A program made the translations under genes and the position numbers. Below are positions 1,587 through 42,553 of a stretch of 64,000 nucleotides of DNA, piece after piece (position 1 is the stretch's first letter; the number at the start of each line of letters is the position of its first letter). The notes under the pieces are model-generated. The model saw nothing but the letters and a program-made list of their open reading frames with translations, was not told where the DNA came from and made no database searches. The stretch lies in sequence record PZ445527.1; one strand, given 5' to 3'. The DNA is from a phage.

Positions 1587-1994
1587 TTATTCGCCTGCGG
1601 CTTGTTTTACTTCATCGGCAACGCCTAACAGCTGCGCCACGGCGTCCAGCGTTTCTAATTTTGCGCTTTCCAGGGATGCCAGATCGTCAACGTCTTTGAT
1701 AATGCCGGAATCAATGGCATGTTTTGCAATAACGCGCACGTAATGCGCTTTGCGGATAGAACTACCGCCGCCAACTTTGCGCGGCTTATCGCTTTTCTGA
1801 TACGCTTTCGCGCTGGTCAATTTTGAGCGAACGGACACGGGAGAAGTCGCGCCAACTGCTTTTGCAATTTCTCTCAGGCCGTCGCTGTTGGCGAACTCCA
1901 AGCCGTTCTCATTGATTAGCTGTTGATACATGGTAACAGCCTGCTGGGTGTTTTCTTCATTCCAAGAGAATTTTGCGGTTTTAACGTTAGTCAT
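1587..1994 (-). CDS. hypothetical protein 135 aa (possible pre-early A2-like DNA-binding protein)
   Basis: ORF track; size and position next to the A1-like gene; no motif recognised. Confidence 0.45.
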   Translation of the reverse strand: MTNVKTAKFSWNEENTQQAVTMYQQLINENGLEFANSDGLREIAKAVGATSPVSVRSKLTSAKAYQKSDKPRKVGGGSSIRKAHYVRVIAKHAIDSGIIKDVDDLASLESAKLETLDAVAQLLGVADEVKQAAGE

Positions 1995-3639: not shown

Positions 3640-3721
3640 TTATTCACAAAGTTATCCACAGCACAAAATGATTTGACACGATAGGCGGCGATATAAGGGC
3701 TTATCCACAGACTTATCCACA
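3640..3721 (+). promoter_or_regulatory. cluster of four DnaA-box matches (ttattcaca 3640-3648; ttatccaca 3652-3660, 3701-3709, 3713-3721)
   Basis: Matches to DnaA box consensus TTATNCACA, three perfect TTATCCACA. Confidence 0.6.
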
Positions 3722-4795: not shown

Positions 4796-5140
4796 ATGGT
4801 AATTTATGAAGGCAATCGCTTTGTTACTAATTGCCGCCCGGCATTGTTAGCAAACTACTTAAACCAGCTTTCTCCTGAATATAAGGGCGTTGTTAATATT
4901 TACGAGGGAAAAGCGCATTATAAGATTAATGCGGTCGTTGCCCGTGAACTAGCGTTTCAATTTTTGACCTTTGCATCTTGTGATATTCAGGTCATGGGGG
5001 AGGCGTTAATCGCAGAAAATGAAAATGATTTTATTAATATTTTTCGCAAAGTATGCACCGAGCGCCTGATAATGAAAGGCGCATATATTCAATCCACTGC
5101 GGATAGTATTGAAACAGCGTTTCGAAAGGTGGCACAATGA
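4796..5140 (+). CDS. hypothetical protein (114 aa)
   Basis: ORF track frame 4781..5140; ATG 4796 preceded by GGGAGG. Confidence 0.5.
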   Translation: MVIYEGNRFVTNCRPALLANYLNQLSPEYKGVVNIYEGKAHYKINAVVARELAFQFLTFASCDIQVMGEALIAENENDFINIFRKVCTERLIMKGAYIQSTADSIETAFRKVAQ

Positions 5141-5155
5141 AATTATATATTTTCG

Positions 5156-5434
5156 TTGGTAATAGTAAGGCAGCTAATGATTCCGCTGGGGGCGATAACG
5201 TTCGCCACTATTGGCAAAAATATATTTACTAGGGTTATTATGAGCAATAAAATTATTATAACTAAAACTACCACAATGGTAGACGTTTTTTACGTGCCCG
5301 ATACGCCGGAAAACCGGCAAGCGGTCGAGCGGGGTGATTATGGTAGCGTTATTTATGATGCCGATGGCTATTATCGGCATTTGGTCGATTCCTATGGGGA
5401 AGAGGAGAAGATCACGCATCGACTACCAGACTAA
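5156..5434 (+). CDS. hypothetical protein, start uncertain (possibly internal ATG near 5240)
   Basis: ORF track; acidic C-terminal half; followed by a GC hairpin at 5441-5470. Confidence 0.35.
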   Translation: MVIVRQLMIPLGAITFATIGKNIFTRVIMSNKIIITKTTTMVDVFYVPDTPENRQAVERGDYGSVIYDADGYYRHLVDSYGEEEKITHRLPD

Positions 5435-5469
5435 TAATAACGGGGCGCAACTATCAGGGAGTGCCCCCA

Positions 5470-5516
5470 ATTCTCAAATGAGAATCATTCTCAAATGAGA
5501 ATGATTCTCATTTGAC
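5470..5516. repeat. imperfect palindromic repeats built on tctcaaatgagaatCattctca
   Basis: Direct reading; same aatgagaat motif family recurs at 5840-6030. Confidence 0.7.
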
Positions 5517-5707
5517 CGCGCCCGCGATGGTTAGCCTGCTAATGATTAGGGTGTTACGTGTCGCCTTGTGTGATCGTTAGCTCGCTAACTAATTTTCAAG
5601 CCTCCTCCAATTTTGCCCTTGTTTTAGTATCCCCGCCAAAATTAAACGCGTTAGAATGCGATTCAGGACGTTTTAGCGGTATATTAGAATTATTCACTGC
5701 ATAGGAA

Positions 5708-5727
5708 TACTGTATAAATATACAGTA
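5708..5727. promoter_or_regulatory. LexA (SOS) box, 20-bp consensus-like tACTGTATAAATATACAGta
   Basis: CTGT-N8-ACAG with TA flanks; second copy of the 16-mer at 3732-3747. Confidence 0.6.
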
Positions 5728-5747
5728 GAATAACCTGGGGATAAGTC

Positions 5748-5817
5748 TGTGGATAACGCTTCAAAATGGCTAGGATTCTGTCAAGTCAAATCGTGCTGTT
5801 GATAAGTCTGTGGATAA
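5748..5817 (-). promoter_or_regulatory. two DnaA boxes in inverted orientation (tgtggataa at 5748-5756 and 5809-5817), each within gataagtctgtggataac
   Basis: Reverse complement of TTATCCACA; the 18-bp context is the inverse of cttatccacagacttatcc at 3700-3718. Confidence 0.6.
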
Positions 5818-5839
5818 CTTAAATAACAGTGTTTCTCAC

Positions 5840-6030
5840 TTCCGTTTTTAAATGCGAATCATTATCATTCGTATTCCACTATCTAACCGATAATCATTCC
5901 ACTTTTTAAATGAGAATCGTTTCACTTCTTGAATAGTTCTCATTCCCTTTCTTAAATGCGAATAATTATCATTCGCATTTCACTTTTTAAATGAGATTGA
6001 TTCTCATTATCATTCGCATTCAGGCGAGCA
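5840..6030. repeat. cluster of degenerate repeats (ttttaaatgMgaat / tcattatcattcg units)
   Basis: Direct reading: at least 4 copies of ttttaaatg[c/a]gaat and 3 of (t)cattatcattcg. Confidence 0.65.
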
Positions 6031-6050
6031 GGGCAATTGCCCTGCGCTTT

Positions 6051-6653
6051 TGTGCAAATCCGACATCTGCTCCAAGGGTTACGTGCTGGCGTGTATGTGC
6101 AAATCCGACAATTTTTGGTAGTGTGCAAATCCGACCCGAAAAATTTTTATAGTGTGCAAATCCGACGACGAATCTGTCTCCCAAAAACTCCAGCAATCAC
6201 GAACTGCGTTCGAATCCTGTGGGATATGTGCAAATCCGACATGGTTTTTCTAGGATTAAGATGTGCGAATCCGACAAGATTTTTGTGACTTCGATTGAAG
6301 GGTGTGTGATTGTGTGGGTTTGAGGAGAAGATGAGAGAGCGAGAGAAATTTTGGGACTAGAAGGATGTGGGCGCAGGATTGGTGCGGAGCACCTGATTTG
6401 CGGGGATTTTGGGGAAGATGTGGGATAATTTGGGAAGATTTGAGATAGGTGCAGAAAAAGTGAAATTTTATTAGCAAAATGGGGCAAAATAGCTTGACAA
6501 GTGAAAATTTCTGTGGCTCTAAAAACTCAGGCAATCATGGGCCTTCGGCCCGAAATAATGCTGCTATTTTCAGGAGAGTAGGAGTTCCTAAAAACTTAGG
6601 CGTTTGTGCAAATCCTACCATAAATTTCTAGAATATCAATGTGCAAATCCGAC
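6051..6653 (+). repeat. iteron-like array: 8 dispersed direct copies of TGTGCAAATCCGAC (6051, 6106, 6122, 6153, 6227, 6263 variant, 6605 variant, 6640)
   Basis: Six exact 14-mers plus two 1-mismatch variants, all same orientation, in non-coding DNA. Confidence 0.85.
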
Positions 6654-6689
6654 AGTAATTTCTGGAAATGTGTTTTCGAAAAATGTCTC

Positions 6690-6790
6690 CTAGAAATAAC
6701 CGCCCTCCCTATAACCGCCCTATATTAACCGCCTATTGCTAGAGTTTCTAGGAACAATGAAAACCGCCTGAGTTGACTAAAGTTTTCATA
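6690..6790 (+). repeat. four copies of a short aaccgcc(c/t) motif
   Basis: ataaccgccct, tataaccgccct, attaaccgcct, aaaaccgcct within 100 bp. Confidence 0.5.
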
Positions 6791-7189
6791 AAAACTTAGG
6801 AGTCTAGAAGAAAGTGTTGTGCCATCCTAGCAGATGAGCGGCAACAGGTGTATCATCTTGAATGTAAATTATATGGTCAAAAGTTTTACTTTTATTTTAA
6901 ATATAAGATCCCCCAGGGTTCTCATATAGAGCTTTGCCCCCGCCAGAAGGTCTCGTGATGTTTCTAGCAATTTATATTAAATTACTTATTAACTTGTCCT
7001 GTCGCTCCGTATCCTCCGCTACAAGTTAGTAATTTTAAATTACTGAACCACCACACCTTCTGTGTGGCAACTCTAAATGGTTAATTCTATTAACTCATAG
7101 AGTTATGATAACATACATTTAGCTATCTGTCAACGAAAGTTTGTATTTGAGTCTCGGTACAGGTATTGTGCACCGAGACATGCAGAGTA

Positions 7190-8074
7190 TTATAATAATT
7201 CTTGGTATGCTTTTTGATACGCCTCAGTATCTGTAGGTGTATCTTTTGCTAACGCAATTAGTTCATCTGTTATCTGAACATTCGTACTATAACGTTGGTG
7301 GAACTCTTCTGGGATTTCTAGGTATCTATTTATGAACGCTGCAGCAAGCGGTGTAACTAACCCAATTTCTAGGGATAACTTAACTTGTTTCTCATAAATT
7401 AAATATTGAGAGTCAGATGGGGTTGGTGGGGTTACATCAACTTTTTCTGGTTCTTTTTCTGGAAGCAATGGATTGTTATACAATGCTTCATCTGGAAGCA
7501 CAGATTTACGCTCTTTAAATATATAAGTTTCTAGATCCGATGCTTTAGATCCTGAGTAAACAGCGAAGATGCTAGCTTTACCTTGAGATGCCCTAACTGG
7601 TAAGTAACTAGTAGGATAGCTCCTTAATGCATCGTGGAATGGACTTCCTGAGTATTTGTACGTATCCCCATAGAGATCATCAATATTCATTCGTTCATCT
7701 TCAAAGATATGGAAAGAGCTAAATGATGGAATGGTGAAGTATTCCATCTGTAACCCATAAACTAAGAAACGATGTGCATATGCGCTAATCTTTAAGACTG
7801 TAAATGCTTTCTCACCTTCTTTATAAGAATTGCCCTTTGAAGTAACTTGATAACGCTTACAAAACATCTCTACTAGACGTTTCTCATTAATATTGAGTGA
7901 GGAATATAAACGTCCATTTAGCCCTAGAAGGGCATCAAACATAAATGCTAACTTATCTTTTTCTTCTTGGGACAGTTCTGGAAATGGTAATACTTTCGCA
8001 TTAGGAACATTATTGTTCTCTTTAGGTTTTGTTTTACCAGCATTTTGTCTTAGCTTATCTTTAAAGTTATACAT
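7190..8074 (-). CDS. hypothetical protein 294 aa
   Basis: ORF track; first gene of the long leftward block. Confidence 0.6.
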   Translation of the reverse strand: MYNFKDKLRQNAGKTKPKENNNVPNAKVLPFPELSQEEKDKLAFMFDALLGLNGRLYSSLNINEKRLVEMFCKRYQVTSKGNSYKEGEKAFTVLKISAYAHRFLVYGLQMEYFTIPSFSSFHIFEDERMNIDDLYGDTYKYSGSPFHDALRSYPTSYLPVRASQGKASIFAVYSGSKASDLETYIFKERKSVLPDEALYNNPLLPEKEPEKVDVTPPTPSDSQYLIYEKQVKLSLEIGLVTPLAAAFINRYLEIPEEFHQRYSTNVQITDELIALAKDTPTDTEAYQKAYQELL

Positions 8075-8153
8075 TATTATCTCCCGTTTTTAAGGTCTGG
8101 ATGACCTTCTTTTTATTTTAGAGCCTCCATAGAGGCTCGTGTATTAGGAATTA

Positions 8154-8765
8154 TTAATCCTTTTTACTTTCGTTAATAACAGCCCCTAATGCTTCCATAA
8201 TTGCATCTTCTAAACTTCCATGTTTATCAGGATTGCTTAAGTGAATAGTATAAACAGAATTCCTAGAAACTCCAGAGTCCGCTGGTGCTACGCTTTTCAT
8301 GTCAGATTCAAAAGCTTCTTGAGTATGTTTCAATTGTACAGAAGGTCCATAATCTTCACCAACTCGGTAGGACTGATTAGACGACAGTGTACCACCACAT
8401 GGAACATTGTGCAAATCCGACGTTATTTTAGGGCTGTTCCACATTGTAATTGGCCCTGACTGCCACGGATCTCGAATAGTCACAGGAGTACTAGGACGGT
8501 TAACCTCAGTCTTCACAAGTTTATAGCCAGCATCGATTAGTGTATTAATTAGATTATCAGCTGGGATGCGAGCTTTGCCAAAGATCTTACGAGCGTTGTT
8601 GAGCCTACCTTCAAAATCTTTACATGCTTTAATATTAGTGTGCGCAAAGGTTAGCTTCATAGATTTGAACTGTACAGTGGCAGTTAAATCTTTAAAAGCA
8701 TAATCCCACGTATTCAGTTCATGATCTGGTACTACTTGAATAGATTGCTGTGCATATAAAGTCAT
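8154..8765 (-). CDS. hypothetical protein 203 aa
   Basis: ORF track; contains one copy of TGTGCAAATCCGAC at 8408-8421. Confidence 0.6.
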   Translation of the reverse strand: MTLYAQQSIQVVPDHELNTWDYAFKDLTATVQFKSMKLTFAHTNIKACKDFEGRLNNARKIFGKARIPADNLINTLIDAGYKLVKTEVNRPSTPVTIRDPWQSGPITMWNSPKITSDLHNVPCGGTLSSNQSYRVGEDYGPSVQLKHTQEAFESDMKSVAPADSGVSRNSVYTIHLSNPDKHGSLEDAIMEALGAVINESKKD

Positions 8766-8950
8766 TATTTATTCTCCAGTTTGTCTAACATCTTATGAGC
8801 TGCTAGGTTATATTGTTTAAGTTCACGATTAAGGATTTGGTTCTCACACTTTAGTTCTAGGTTCTCCTTGTTAAGGAGATTGCAGATTAGTAGAAGTGCT
8901 AGTATAACTAGCAGAGAACCTACGAGCATTAAAAGAAAAAGAGTTTCCAT
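8765..8950 (-). CDS. small membrane protein 61 aa
   Basis: ORF track; N-terminal hydrophobic helix; overlapping stop/start. Confidence 0.5.
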   Translation of the reverse strand: METLFLLMLVGSLLVILALLLICNLLNKENLELKCENQILNRELKQYNLAAHKMLDKLENK

Positions 8951-9183
8951 TATTTAATTCCCATGTAACGTTTGAGATACATGATGAAGTCTTCTGTTGT
9001 ATGTTCTACGCTACCCTGAACCACAAACAACTTTAAAGCCTCACGCTGTAATTTAAGAGCAGCTAACTCACCGCGTAATTTTGTTATATCTTCCGCTAGT
9101 TCTCTAGCTCTGCGCATAATAGCAAATGATACAGATGTTACAATAAATAACATAACTGCTAAAATAATTACTATGAACTCCAT
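8950..9183 (-). CDS. small membrane protein 77 aa
   Basis: ORF track; N-terminal TM segment then charged helix. Confidence 0.5.
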   Translation of the reverse strand: MEFIVIILAVMLFIVTSVSFAIMRRARELAEDITKLRGELAALKLQREALKLFVVQGSVEHTTEDFIMYLKRYMGIK

Positions 9184-9461
9184 ATTAACATCCAGCTCTT
9201 ATCGTATATTTGGGCATGTTCTACTAATTCATTTATTGATATAGAATTATCGTAGATACTCTCTAGTAAACATTTTCTGTCAAATTTATCTACCAAATAC
9301 TCCGCGCCATTTATCACTACCCTATATAGCTCTGGAACTAAGGGGTGTTTGTTTGGTATTGGGCGACTGCCTAAGTCTATTTCATTATATCCCCACGTTG
9401 TTTTAAATAGTTTGTTACTAAGTGCTGCTAGTGGGTTTGACCATACAATATAGCTACTCAC
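9171..9461 (-). CDS. hypothetical protein 96 aa
   Basis: ORF track. Confidence 0.45.
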   Translation of the reverse strand: MSSYIVWSNPLAALSNKLFKTTWGYNEIDLGSRPIPNKHPLVPELYRVVINGAEYLVDKFDRKCLLESIYDNSISINELVEHAQIYDKSWMLIWSS

Positions 9462-10002
9462 TATTTATCTCCATTCTTAACTTTGAAAACTTATTATACC
9501 AAACTATGTAATTATCGTCAATTACAAATTTATGATAACATGCTGGTACGGTATAAGTTCCATAATCCGTGACACGCTGCACAACCTTGTGTGCGCACAG
9601 TCGACATCCATGCCCTTCTAAATGAGATCTAGCAGTTTGCCAGTAATAACCATCATGGTCTGGACAATAGATCTCGACTTGCTGTTGCATTGTCTTATAA
9701 TTTACACGCTCATACCCGAAGAAAGCCCCGTGAGCTGCAATAGCTTTCTTGATAAATATAAGGTTTAGCGCTTCTTGCTGGAAGTCGGGATGTAGCTGCT
9801 TAATTTTAGTTCTATTAATAGACCCATCCGATTTGATGAACCTATTTATTGGAAAGTTGTTAGCTTCCTCGATTAATAATTCATTTACTTTCTCTCTCAT
9901 ATTAGATACTCTCACAACTAAGGTGGAAACATTCGTAAGCATCCCCAGTAAACTCTTTATCTTGTAATAAACACTTAGCCTGGTCTTCCGGTACTCCAGC
10001 AT
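9454..10002 (-). CDS. hypothetical protein 182 aa (Cys/His-containing, HGCRLCAH)
   Basis: ORF track; start may be internal. Confidence 0.5.
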   Translation of the reverse strand: MLEYRKTRLSVYYKIKSLLGMLTNVSTLVVRVSNMREKVNELLIEEANNFPINRFIKSDGSINRTKIKQLHPDFQQEALNLIFIKKAIAAHGAFFGYERVNYKTMQQQVEIYCPDHDGYYWQTARSHLEGHGCRLCAHKVVQRVTDYGTYTVPACYHKFVIDDNYIVWYNKFSKLRMEINSE

Positions 10003-10105
10003 CTAATAATTGTTGTTTACTTGGCTTTTCAGCAAATACCTTTACAAAATACTCGCCATCCTGATTATACTCATTTATATCTCTAGTAAGGACATATACT
10101 TGCAT
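9902..10105 (-). CDS. hypothetical protein 67 aa
   Basis: ORF track; overlaps 5' end of previous ORF so one start is probably wrong. Confidence 0.35.
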   Translation of the reverse strand: MQVYVLTRDINEYNQDGEYFVKVFAEKPSKQQLLDAGVPEDQAKCLLQDKEFTGDAYECFHLSCESI

Positions 10106-10123
10106 TTAAAGTTCCTTGAAAAC

Positions 10124-10153
10124 ATAAAAGGCCAGAACAATTAAGTCCTGGCC
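10124..10153 (-). terminator. rho-independent terminator (ggccag...ctggcc stem, U-tract)
   Basis: 6-bp stem at 10130-10153 followed on minus strand by UUUU (plus aaaa 10126-10129). Confidence 0.55.
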
Positions 10154-10161
10154 TCCTAAAA

Positions 10162-10533
10162 TTAATGAAGTTGTTTACCACTTCTTAACATAGTGGCCGT
10201 TTCCATAAGACCTAGCGTAGCATCACGCTTATTGATCTGTTTACCAAGTTCATCAGTACGTTTACTGATGTAAGCATTAATAGCCATATTCATAGCTGTA
10301 GCGAGATCTTCTTTGGTTATCTCTTCATCGTCTAAAGCTAATTTAGCCAAAGAATCAAATGTGCTAGAGAGTCCTATAAGATCTGAGGTTTCTCCAGCCA
10401 AAATAGGATTAATATTATCTACTGTTACTTCTAGCATGGAGTTGACAATATCTTCACCGTCTATTAGACCAGTTTCAATATTACTCTCCCACTCCTTCAT
10501 CTGCTCCAATAATGGATTTTTCTTTTCTGTCAT
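10162..10533 (-). CDS. hypothetical acidic protein (about 123 aa)
   Basis: ORF track 10162..10599; start moved to internal ATG to avoid 119-nt overlap. Confidence 0.45.
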   Translation of the reverse strand: MTEKKNPLLEQMKEWESNIETGLIDGEDIVNSMLEVTVDNINPILAGETSDLIGLSSTFDSLAKLALDDEEITKEDLATAMNMAINAYISKRTDELGKQINKRDATLGLMETATMLRSGKQLH

Positions 10534-20054: not shown

Positions 20055-20731
20055 CTTTTCATATTCCTGAATGACGTAACCGTATCAAATCCATGTGCTG
20101 CTAGGCGGTCTTTATCAGAAGTGGTAATAATATCTGGTTCTCCTGTTCCAAGTACACCCCAAATATACTGCTCGATTCTTTGGTGCAGCCGATATAGGTT
20201 AGGTTCCACACTCTGCCACGGAATACCTGATAGGTGTAGACGCGGATTAGTTATAACCTTGAAGTATTTATTGTTATCTTTATCATTTGGAACTAATGAA
20301 TCTAGAACTGCTAACGGTACTCTTAACTCAGTTAAGGCTTCTTCAGCTTTGGGGGTAACTTCTTCTTGCCATGCTAAGATAGACTCTTTTGGCTTCCCCC
20401 TATTTATGTCTAGCAAAGAAAACCCTGTTGACCATCCCTTCTCCTCCAAAATTTCTAACGCCTCGTCCAAACTGAAGGTTTTTACTTGGGTATCCAGTAC
20501 ATCAATGTGGTATAACCAGTAAATCTCCCCAGCTAGGAAGAAAGGCAAAATTTTAAAGTAGCCAATCTTTCCCTCAATACGAGCAATCCTACGTTCTTGC
20601 ATGATCATATAGTTGTCATCATCTGGGGCTTTTATTGTTAGCTCTTCAGTTTTACGTTCCCAAACGCGATCGGGGTCGAACAAACTGTTCTGCAAATCAT
20701 ACACATCTACGAATTTAGAGATGATTCTCAT
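20051..20731 (-). CDS. hypothetical protein 226 aa
   Basis: ORF track; promoter upstream. Confidence 0.6.
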   Translation of the reverse strand: MRIISKFVDVYDLQNSLFDPDRVWERKTEELTIKAPDDDNYMIMQERRIARIEGKIGYFKILPFFLAGEIYWLYHIDVLDTQVKTFSLDEALEILEEKGWSTGFSLLDINRGKPKESILAWQEEVTPKAEEALTELRVPLAVLDSLVPNDKDNNKYFKVITNPRLHLSGIPWQSVEPNLYRLHQRIEQYIWGVLGTGEPDIITTSDKDRLAAHGFDTVTSFRNMKR

Positions 20732-41411: not shown

Positions 41412-42553
41412 AGGAAATCTCCAAATTCATTACCCAAATCTTTCAGGGTATCCATAGACGTTTCTGTGACTTGACCTACACGGTAGGCTGCACCAATCTG
41501 GATTTCTTGTGGAGCAGGCTGTAGAGAGGTAGTATCCAACCAGTTCATGATCCACGGAATAGGGTTTTTGGTGATTACTGGTAAGTGACTAGGCCATTCT
41601 ACACCAATGTGCATAAATGCATTACGCCCCACAAAGTACAGATATTCTTCTAGAAGTTCTGCATTCAAACCAATCAGACTACGACCTTTGAAGATGAAAT
41701 GACCCCATTCAATTTCAGTTTTCAGAGTTTTCAGGAGCTGTGCTGGTGCTTTAGCCACTGCTTCATCTACCAGATCTTTGTCAAACTGCTGGAACATAAT
41801 CTGGATGATTGTTTTAGACATCTGCGTGTGAAGGGCCTCATCCTTAGCAATCAACTGCAGATTTTTAGCAATACCTTGCAGAATATCGTTCTCTGCTAAC
41901 GCAAAGGTACATGCAAAGGATGCGTAGAACTGCATTGCTTCCAGACCGTAGATTGCAAAATAAGCATCTAACAGTTTAGCCTGAGTTTCACGCTTAACTT
42001 CAGGGAACTCAGTTTCTGGGTATGTATTGTCACCACGATGATCACGTACTGCGATGAAATACTGACCTAACTGGTACAGTTCATCAAATAGTTCAACAGA
42101 ATCTGCGATACGTGCAAATGCTTCTTGGTTTTTAGTTACAGAATCAATAAATTCTGCCGGATCAGTCAACACATTACGAATAATATTGCTATAGGCACGA
42201 CTATGCAGGTCTTCAAAGTAGCTCCACTGTTTTAGCATTCCTTCCAGTTCAGGGCGGCTTACAAGCGGCATAATAGCTGCTTCAGGTGCGCGACTAATGA
42301 AAGAATCTGTTTGGGTCTGCCATGCTAAGTTCAGGAGTGTAATTTCCTGAATTTCACGAGGGAGGTTAGGCCATTGTTTCTTATCAGCCTCTAAACTGAT
42401 TTCTGTCTCAGTCCAAAATTGAGAGCGTTGCAGAAGTGCCAGACGCTCTAATTCTGGATGTGCTACGCGTACATAATCTGCGATACCTAGAGAATCGCCC
42501 AGGAAAAGATCAGCGTTAGTATGATCCCAATTCAGGTTTAGTAAAGTAGTCAT
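41408..42553 (-). CDS. nrdB: ribonucleotide reductase class Ia small subunit (NrdB) 381 aa
   Basis: Di-iron/tyrosyl-radical R2 blocks, size, adjacency to nrdA. Confidence 0.85.
   Translation of the reverse strand: MTTLLNLNWDHTNADLFLGDSLGIADYVRVAHPELERLALLQRSQFWTETEISLEADKKQWPNLPREIQEITLLNLAWQTQTDSFISRAPEAAIMPLVSRPELEGMLKQWSYFEDLHSRAYSNIIRNVLTDPAEFIDSVTKNQEAFARIADSVELFDELYQLGQYFIAVRDHRGDNTYPETEFPEVKRETQAKLLDAYFAIYGLEAMQFYASFACTFALAENDILQGIAKNLQLIAKDEALHTQMSKTIIQIMFQQFDKDLVDEAVAKAPAQLLKTLKTEIEWGHFIFKGRSLIGLNAELLEEYLYFVGRNAFMHIGVEWPSHLPVITKNPIPWIMNWLDTTSLQPAPQEIQIGAAYRVGQVTETSMDTLKDLGNEFGDFL

Follow-up and report, generated by a model that had tools for sequence, protein, structure and literature searches.

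Short repeated DNA motifs of one orientation, or on the two sides of a defined site, are familiar from several systems: P1 pac and SPP1 pacL/pacR have short motif repeats flanking the cut site on either side, DnaA sites in oriC are closely and regularly packed, P1 oriR, F and pSC101 are iteron-type origins, and Reb1 and Sap1 act as polar barriers. In phage T5, where the stop and restart of genome injection is a question dating from the 1960s, a repeat family of its own has been described. The T5 record AY587007 labels a series of 14-mers "direct repeat D copy 1" to "copy 10", the last of them within ORF019, and the record AY543070 gives the injection stop signal (iss) as 9140-10149. Davison (preprint, 10.1101/866236) listed "nine copies of direct repeat DRD" within "Repeat Region 3" and cited a 1987 sequencing study there. 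The largest T5 deletion mutant (2026) retains the DRD region. In the literature we found, no function has been assigned to DRD and no mutational test of the repeats has been published; the exact 14-mer TGTGCAAATCCGAC does not occur in the text of the literature searched. From T5 it is also known that A2 is an essential pre-early DNA-binding dimer associated with A1 at the membrane, and that both proteins are needed for second-step transfer.

The phage considered here is T5-like (Tequintavirus) by sequence comparison. The window, by which we mean the whole analysed stretch of 64,000 nucleotides, starts within gene A1. A sequence-only reading had described an array of six exact and two near-exact copies of TGTGCAAATCCGAC in gene-free DNA, all in one orientation and irregularly spaced, and a ninth exact copy inside CDS 8154..8765. 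This description was confirmed throughout by a search allowing two mismatches and by a check of ORFs and T5 annotation. Copies 1 to 5 are exact and located at 6051..6064, 6096..6109, 6122..6135, 6153..6166 and 6227..6240; copy 6 at 6262..6275 (TGTGCGAATCCGAC) carries one mismatch (A6G), as does copy 7 at 6605..6618 (TGTGCAAATCCTAC, G12T), and copy 8 at 6640..6653 is again exact. Start-to-start spacings of these clustered copies are 45, 26, 31, 74, 35, 343 and 35 bp. The copy at 8408..8421 is exact and equals T5 "direct repeat D copy 10", and copy 1 equals "direct repeat D copy 1" of AY587007. In total, TGTGCAAATCCGAC with ≤2 mismatches yielded 9 matches in the 64 kb, all on the plus strand, compared to an expectation of 0.28 (largest value 2) in dinucleotide-preserving shuffles, none of which reached 9 (0/100). 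Allowing three mismatches added just two matches, at 20689 and 56765, both unrelated. The core 8-mer GTGCAAAW was found nine times on the plus strand (eight times within the copies and once at 42112) and not at all on the minus strand of the window. Genome-wide, the motif is thus clustered and on one strand rather than present at similar density throughout, and the position of the cluster is conserved among relatives.

The region 5700-7000 matches 448 phage records, with Escherichia phage T5 as the top match (93.6% identity), and the T5 DNA matched by it is annotated as "left terminal repeat", "injection stop signal (iss)" and "major DNA single-chain interruption". In the alignment of window 5616-6768 with T5 (AY543070) 9316-10468 the identity is 92.5%; by homology, copies 1-6 map within the annotated iss and copies 7-8 just past it. 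The injection-stop location, which had been offered as one possibility for the array, is therefore right, at 92-94% identity to the T5 iss/DRD region. The copies follow the family sequence TGTGC(A/G)AATCCGA(C/T) (14-15 nt) and are identical to those of T5 in the alignment. They start just past palindrome J and major nick 1, in ORF-free DNA at the junction of pre-early and early genes, and have a single orientation, with six copies in the terminal repeat and the others just outside (the end being placed by homology only). A further copy is located in the ORF019 homologue, which matches the T5 layout. As judged from these alignments, the array is the direct repeat D (DRD) family of T5, named and catalogued before, and the present finding is a rediscovery.

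Several elements surround the array. On its left, two perfect DnaA boxes (TGTGGATAA) at 5748 and 5809 (5748..5817, plus strand) have the orientation of the DRD copies and belong to the element designated IRD'spacerIRC' by Davison. They are followed by AT-rich palindromic repeats (~5843-6020) and by palindrome J (6028..6048, hairpin 6028-6045), a terminator-like GCAGGGCAATTGCCCTGC with a 7-bp stem and a T run, which overlaps a CCTGCGC motif. This motif is homologous to the major 7.9% nick of T5, where the nick at 9748/9749 on the minus strand corresponds to 6047/6048, three bases before copy 1. Between the two groups of copies lies a C-poor, G-rich spacer (6290..6510, plus strand; A67 C15 G80 T59 in 221 bases), and a hyper-conserved block at 6462-6575 holds TTGACA (6494-6499) and a hairpin (6539-6551). 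Four TAACCGCC repeats follow at 6697-6768. The array region sits between convergent transcription units. From 5705 to 7189 only short unconserved ORFs are present, no CDS is annotated there in T5 records, and relatives differ by 1-, 3- and 10-bp indels across the array region; a coding role of the array was rejected because of these short ORFs, the frame-breaking indels and the lack of a T5 CDS. An Rfam scan of 5000-9000 (E ≤ 1) returned no family, and a known RNA element was likewise rejected. A Fur box in the neighboring palindromes was too weak, as the one 16/19 match was equalled by 7/100 shuffles, and a promoter from copy 7 (TTGATA-16-TAGGAT, minus strand) was rejected as a general feature since it needs the window-specific G12T. 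The sequence-only reading had missed that DRD is already annotated and named, that the copies straddle the end of the terminal repeat and that the 5' half of the motif resembles a DnaA box.

Regarding conservation, we compared 15 distinct Tequintavirus/Epseptimavirus sequences that are 76-94% identical to the window over the region. The 112 motif columns are 96.0% conserved versus 81.7% for the 220 spacer columns in the arrays (Mann-Whitney p = 2.6e-8), and all 14 motif positions score ≥ 0.83 in this set. The core also persists in phages and contigs more distant than these, the flanks of which are unalignable. In Klebsiella phage vB_Kpn9-P3, 10 copies were found in the layout CTGCGCTTA, TGTGCGAATCCGAC, four further copies, a G-rich spacer, TTGACA...CTGTGGCTCTAAAAAC and five further copies. 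Serratia phages Kamaji and Slocum have a left group of four copies and a right group of two. Vibrio cholerae phage phi3, whose A2 is 36% identical, contains about a dozen (A/G)GTGCAAAACYGAY copies, some of them in 17-bp tandem, and Vibrio phage Ceto contains GGTGCAAAW copies, eight to the left and four to the right of the repeat end. In Vibrio phage 70E38.1 there are six TATGTGCGAAWYC-type copies, three in 13-bp tandem, and the right-hand group is absent. Metagenomic contigs with an A1 just 30-33% identical to that of T5 have AGTGCAAAWCCGAY in 15-bp tandem. Every lineage keeps the core GTGCRAAW, and most, though not all, retain the 3' half CCGAY, which is lost in 70E38.1 and degenerate in Ceto. 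Lineage-specific variants of the motif concern position 1 (T, G or A) and positions 10-13 (CCGA versus TTGA, TCTA or ACC). In the five lineages compared (Tequintavirus, Klebsiella, Serratia, phi3, Ceto) the first copy starts 0-6 bp after the GCGC motif, and the copies share one orientation within each of them. The spacing of the copies differs among genera, with 26-81 bp in Tequintavirus, 21-81 bp in the Klebsiella phage and 13-17 bp tandem in the Vibrio phages, and this unconserved spacing speaks for sites that are bound independently and against a fixed higher-order structure.

Among IMG/VR viral contigs the two-copy pattern was present in 48 stretches, nearly all on contigs of 100-125 kb. 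Eleven of these loci were examined for T5-type genes, and A1 and/or A2 were found in 6/11. For four others (L072, L077, L084 and L086) no T5-type gene was seen in the DNA fetched round the locus, and L070 and the A1/A2-positive L059 belong to one contig. Comparison across the family demonstrates that the DRD sites are under purifying selection, polar, family-wide and fixed beside the nick motif; by the measure of conservation, DRD is real, non-random and functional. Because the motif is kept while flanks and spacings change, this non-palindromic 12-14-bp motif is very probably the recognition site for a protein whose specificity has remained stable in the family.

The two groups of copies lie on either side of a genome landmark. 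The annotated right end of the left terminal repeat is at 10219 in T5, 9743 in BF23, 10295 in Sepoy and 9573 in Spc35, and these four ends coincide at one base of a shared 16-mer, CTGTGGCTC|TAAAAAC (in BF23 in the form TTGTGGATC|TAAAAAC). The ends of BF23, Sepoy and Slocum were obtained by PhageTerm (for BF23, PMC10644984). The Slocum end is 2 nt off, in GTGTGGC|TCAAACAC, and that of record cott162 deviates by 201 bp. The 16-mer gave 19 matches in IMG/VR, 5/19 being chance matches in unrelated coding DNA. In the window it is found at 6511..6526 on the plus strand, inside the hyper-conserved block, which by homology places the cut at 6519|6520. Copies 1-6 are thus 468-257 bp to the left of the repeat end and therefore part of both terminal repeats, copy 6 being the final copy within, and copies 7 and 8 are 86 bp and 121 bp to its right. 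DRD copies flank the repeat end on both sides in 5/6 lineages. Relative to this end they are located at -468..-257 and +86..+259 in Tequintavirus/Epseptimavirus, at about -405..-259 and then +124 and +161 in the Serratia phage, at -308..-123 and +57..+192 in Ceto, and at -347..-149 and +117..+235 in the Klebsiella phage, where the end is taken from the conserved motif and not from annotation.

The copy at 8408-8421 is located within a 203-aa ORF on the minus strand (8154..8765), the T5.019 homologue. Read on the minus strand, it corresponds to xxG TCG GAT TTG CAC Axx (S-D-L-H) and encodes (T/M)-S-D-(L/M)-H-N in the conserved peptide SD(L/M)HNVPCGG. Among 12 homologues the only variants of the 14-mer are TGTGCATATCCGAC and TGTGCATTTCCGAC, both of which alter the protein (L to M, D to E) and both of which recur among the right-hand copies of the Klebsiella phage. 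All 12 homologues use TCG for the serine, with adjacent codons being equally conserved, and the conservation of the 14-mer ranks 52nd among 610 windows of the gene. Protein constraint alone could account for the conservation of this copy, and in these alignments selection at the DNA level is inseparable from it.

Which protein might read the sites? Tentatively, and at somewhat less than even chances, we favor DRD as docking sites for a conserved phage protein that acts at transfer restart, most plausibly the essential pre-early A2. The product of 1587..1994 (minus strand, 135 aa), which the sequence-only reading had put forward as an A2-like candidate, is indeed the T5 A2 homologue and a candidate reader of the 14-mer; roughly 900 Demerecviridae genomes carry A2. 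Structure prediction gives its N-terminal domain as a Myb/homeodomain-like three-helix bundle, and structural neighbors of this domain include Reb1 (PDB entry of a Ter-site complex) and Sap1. From T5 to the Vibrio phages helix 3 has the invariant pattern S-x-x-x-V-R-x-K-L, in parallel with the core of the motif, at an overall A2 identity of 36-43%. The third residue of this helix is V/A where the motif starts with T and K/R where it starts with G/A, a relation backed by few independent events, with L059 being mixed. Copies 1-6, to the right of the DnaA-box/DRE block and within both terminal repeats, occupy the place at which Davison's model puts a hypothetical A1/A2 recognition site.

The proposed course of events would be as follows. 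Each polar, non-palindromic DRD site would be read by a sequence-specific protein; the sites begin directly past the 7.9% nick motif, where first-step-transfer DNA meets the remainder of the genome. During the injection pause A2 is produced from the first 8% of the genome; it would occupy copies 1-6 and later copies 7-8 as the DNA becomes available. Together with its membrane partner A1 it would then hold, pull in or process the DNA, upon which second-step transfer could resume. We infer three things here, namely that a protein reads the sites, that this protein is A2 and that the outcome is transfer restart. In a more specific and more doubtful version, DRD and the predicted Myb-like A2 might form a DNA-entry restart device at the junction of injected and not-yet-injected DNA, which together with the A1 phosphoesterase ratchets the DNA inward or cuts it; DNA cutting by A1/A2 is a proposal of Davison's model.

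Some observations count against A2. Loss of CCGAY in 70E38.1 and its degeneracy in Ceto, with helix 3 of A2 unchanged, speak against A2 as the reader, and the flanking of the repeat end by DRD copies is not predicted by a role in DNA entry. The shear point has been estimated in the literature at ~55 bp to the left of copy 1, so the array may stay in the tail or envelope during the pause, where a cytoplasmic protein could not get at it before the DNA moves. Conservation as such does not single out A2, since Ceto and Tequintavirus share about 40-47% identity both in A2 and in the putative small terminase subunit.

That small subunit, or another end-forming factor, is the subject of the alternative that survives best: DRD would be its docking sites, flanking the cut at the right repeat end. 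We consider this unlikely, yet the location of the copies speaks for it. Repeats on both sides of the genome-end cut were found in Tequintavirus/Epseptimavirus, in the Serratia phages and in Ceto, and by the homologous motif in the Klebsiella phage; the end itself is annotated independently at the same base in T5, BF23, Sepoy and Spc35, and conservation of a small-terminase homologue extends through the phage family. In tailed phages the DNA packaged last leaves first, and because the left end is injected first, packaging should start at the right end of the repeat. However, no cluster of DRD or GTGCAAAW is present at the other repeat boundary (T5 1-240, and 330 bp before the right repeat), so that the repeats do not accompany every boundary. 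The motif common to both boundaries is a different one, TAACCGCC, of which Slocum has the variant AACCCCCC at both. Moreover, the distances between copies and cut vary widely among lineages, whereas the first copy is fixed to the nick motif, 70E38.1 manages without the right-hand group, and one DRD copy is located 1.9 kb off within a gene.

A host protein was considered next. The DRD copies could be weak DnaA boxes, or sites of another conserved host protein, which extend the DnaA-box cluster and help to arrest the DNA before phage proteins are synthesized; we regard this as rather improbable. The sequence-only reading had recognized no host-factor consensus in the motif. Compared by eye, none of the consensus sequences for CRP, IHF, Fis, marbox and LacI-family half-sites fits; the 5' half of the motif is within one mismatch of a DnaA box. 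Its reverse complement, ATTTGCACA, differs at one position from the relaxed box TTWTNCACA, and the variant TGTGCAAAACCGAC matches perfectly; counted per DRD form, there is one mismatch in the main form, two are present in the G6 variant and none in the A9 variant. Just 1.4% of the 14-mers in the window come as near to this box. At 240-300 bp to the left there are two perfect boxes of like orientation, the universal core GTGCRAAW is the box-like half, the injection pause proceeds without phage protein synthesis, and an invariant host specificity would account for conservation in phages of differing hosts. On the other hand, the free position N5 of the DnaA box is fixed in DRD (motif position 5, 98%), CCGAC, which lies beyond the box, equals the box-like half in conservation among enteric phages, and Vibrio and other lineages have C or T in place of the terminal A of the box. 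Perfect consensus boxes are kept near the array by the same phages, which argues that the DRD consensus is distinct. The spacings of 13-81 bp are also unlike a close, regular packing. Finally, a search of 185,579 species genomes for pairs of copies within 35 bp, a pattern that says nothing on single sites, gave 19 matches, one of them a mis-binned T5-like fragment and the others tandem or coding repeats in unrelated taxa; none of these genomes held a two-copy array in an Enterobacterales or Vibrio chromosome.

A role in transcription appears very unlikely. DRD would here be a roadblock or regulatory sites, stopping read-through from the rightward pre-early operon or controlling the promoter-like element at 6494-6526. 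The array does begin directly after a terminator-like hairpin (palindrome J with its T run), it lies between convergent transcription units, and Reb1 and Sap1 are among the structural neighbors of the A2 domain, but the TTGACA element is without a recognizable -10 hexamer, and a roadblock leaves the copies to the right of the repeat end unexplained.

That DRD are replication-origin iterons for an initiator acting beside DnaA boxes, as in iteron plasmids or phage P1 and as the origin-like reading first suggested, is hardly credible: the layout of DnaA boxes followed by 5-6 same-orientation repeats with A/T tracts after many copies is only superficially iteron-like, the spacing is irregular (26-81 bp), differs between genera and lacks regular phasing at about two helical turns, the neighbors of the array are small pre-early ORFs and proteins without assigned function rather than an initiator gene, and T5 origins are reported mid-genome, near the molecule centre according to Davison's review of electron-microscopy studies, with replication genes not expressed from first-step DNA.

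To the repeats catalogued in T5, the present analysis adds the depth of conservation down to the GTGCRAAW core, the fixed place by the nick motif, the conserved repeat end between the two groups and the predicted Myb-like fold of A2. DRD is among the most deeply conserved non-coding elements of this phage family. Taken together with a predicted A2 fold suited to such sites, this conservation leads to a direct and cheap question, namely whether A2, DnaA or the small terminase subunit binds TGTGCAAATCCGAC. If the proposed restart device is true, it would offer a molecular handle on T5 second-step transfer for the first time, and its conservation would extend from coliphages to Vibrio phages. Independent of function, a repeat end pinned to a conserved 16-mer between the copy groups aids the annotation of T5-like genomes, many of which have been deposited without ends.

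Compared with the described systems, DRD shares single features with each. Like the iterons of P1 oriR, F and pSC101 it consists of same-orientation direct repeats near DnaA boxes, unlike them it is irregularly spaced and without an adjacent initiator gene, in a phage type with origins reported mid-genome. The nine bases at its 5' side differ from the relaxed DnaA consensus by 0-1 mismatch and point in the same direction as the nearby boxes, whereas conservation is equally high in five more bases, the free position does not vary and other lineages do not retain the terminal A. As in P1 pac and SPP1 pacL/pacR, short repeats flank a defined genome-end cut, but those of DRD are 86-470 bp away from it at lineage-variable distances and have no counterpart at the other boundary, and binding by terminase is hypothetical. 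The arrays read by the Myb/homeodomain-like proteins Rap1 (telomeres) and Reb1/Sap1 (Ter sites) show no sequence homology, and binding of A2 to DRD is a prediction. Closest is the DRD of T5 itself. T5 copy 9 (T5 10477, TGTGCAAATCCGAT) is absent in this phage, the spacing round copies 4-6 is 74/35 bp here and 81/25 bp in T5, and copy 7 carries G12T here; otherwise the two arrays correspond, with the same 14-mer in the same order, orientation and spacing, the same neighbors (palindrome J and nick 1 on the left, early genes on the right) and a region identity of 92-94%.

The highest conservation in the non-coding region, near 100% among 15 distinct Tequintavirus and Epseptimavirus relatives, was found in the block at window 6462-6575, which spans the right end of the left terminal repeat. 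This block contains a TTGACA hexamer at 6494-6499, the repeat end itself at 6511-6526, where CTGTGGCTC is followed by TAAAAAC, and a hairpin, GGGCCTTCGGCCC, at 6539-6551. Little of the region can still be aligned between Tequintavirus and Klebsiella phages, and one of the few alignable stretches is a part of this block with the repeat-end 16-mer in it (about 6448-6526). In Klebsiella (locus L004, 3590-3606) and Serratia (locus L054, about 5542-5552) phages a hairpin lies at an equal offset from the repeat end, although its sequence differs.

Four plus-strand copies of TAACCGCC lie shortly beyond the repeat end on its right side (6697-6768), and the same motif is found about 36 bp inward from the physical left end in T5 (left-end locus L003, 36-49) and in BF23. 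Serratia phage Slocum carries the variant AACCCCCC at both sites (L055, about 33-46, and L054, 5768-5795). TAACCGCC is a candidate for an element common to both repeat boundaries. The 10-mer AAAAACTYAG is present three times, at 6521, 6590 and 6790, on the plus strand only and nowhere else in the 64 kb, and positions 19-29 of the T5 left end read AAAATACTTAG, which is similar to it. The physical genome end is not the start of the window, as position 1 falls within the A1 gene, at about T5 position 2136.

A strong sigma-70-like promoter match (TTGACA-17-TATCAT, 11/12, with TG preceding the second hexamer) is located on the minus strand at 7105-7133, downstream of CDS 7190..8074. It is directed to the left, where some 460 bp are free of ORFs, and faces the TAACCGCC repeats as well as copies 8 and 7 of the T5 direct repeat D (DRD); the T5 records examined carry no annotation of this match. 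DRD copies 7-8 and the TAACCGCC repeats are also present, together with a T5.019 homologue (70% identity), on L032 (SABI01000336.1), a 2.6-kb contig labelled as Spirochaetia, which is a T5-like phage fragment binned into a metagenome-assembled genome of that class. The product of the minus-strand CDS 8154-8765, which hosts the ninth DRD copy, weakly matched the putative metallopeptidase domain DUF2201_N of Pfam, with a score below the threshold (18.1 bits, where 23.2 are required; E = 0.0023).

Perfect DnaA boxes (TGTGGATAA) number five in the 64-kb window, with 0.66 expected by chance, and all five are located in the pre-early region. They form one cluster at 3652-3721 on the minus strand and one in opposite orientation at 5748-5817 on the plus strand, which correspond to the IRCspacerIRD and IRD'spacerIRC' elements of Davison (bioRxiv 10.1101/866236). 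The palindromic repeats at 5843-6020 (AAATGCGAATCATTATCATTCG and relatives) are the 'direct repeat C' of T5. Their sequence bears a weak resemblance to the Fur box, the top match being 16/19 at 5993-6011 on the minus strand, a value equalled by 7 of 100 shuffles.

Between the two DRD groups, the spacer at 6290-6510 shows a strong strand asymmetry (A67 C15 G80 T59) and is abundant in GGGG/GATG-type runs. A comparable G-rich spacer is present in Klebsiella, Serratia and Vibrio phages.
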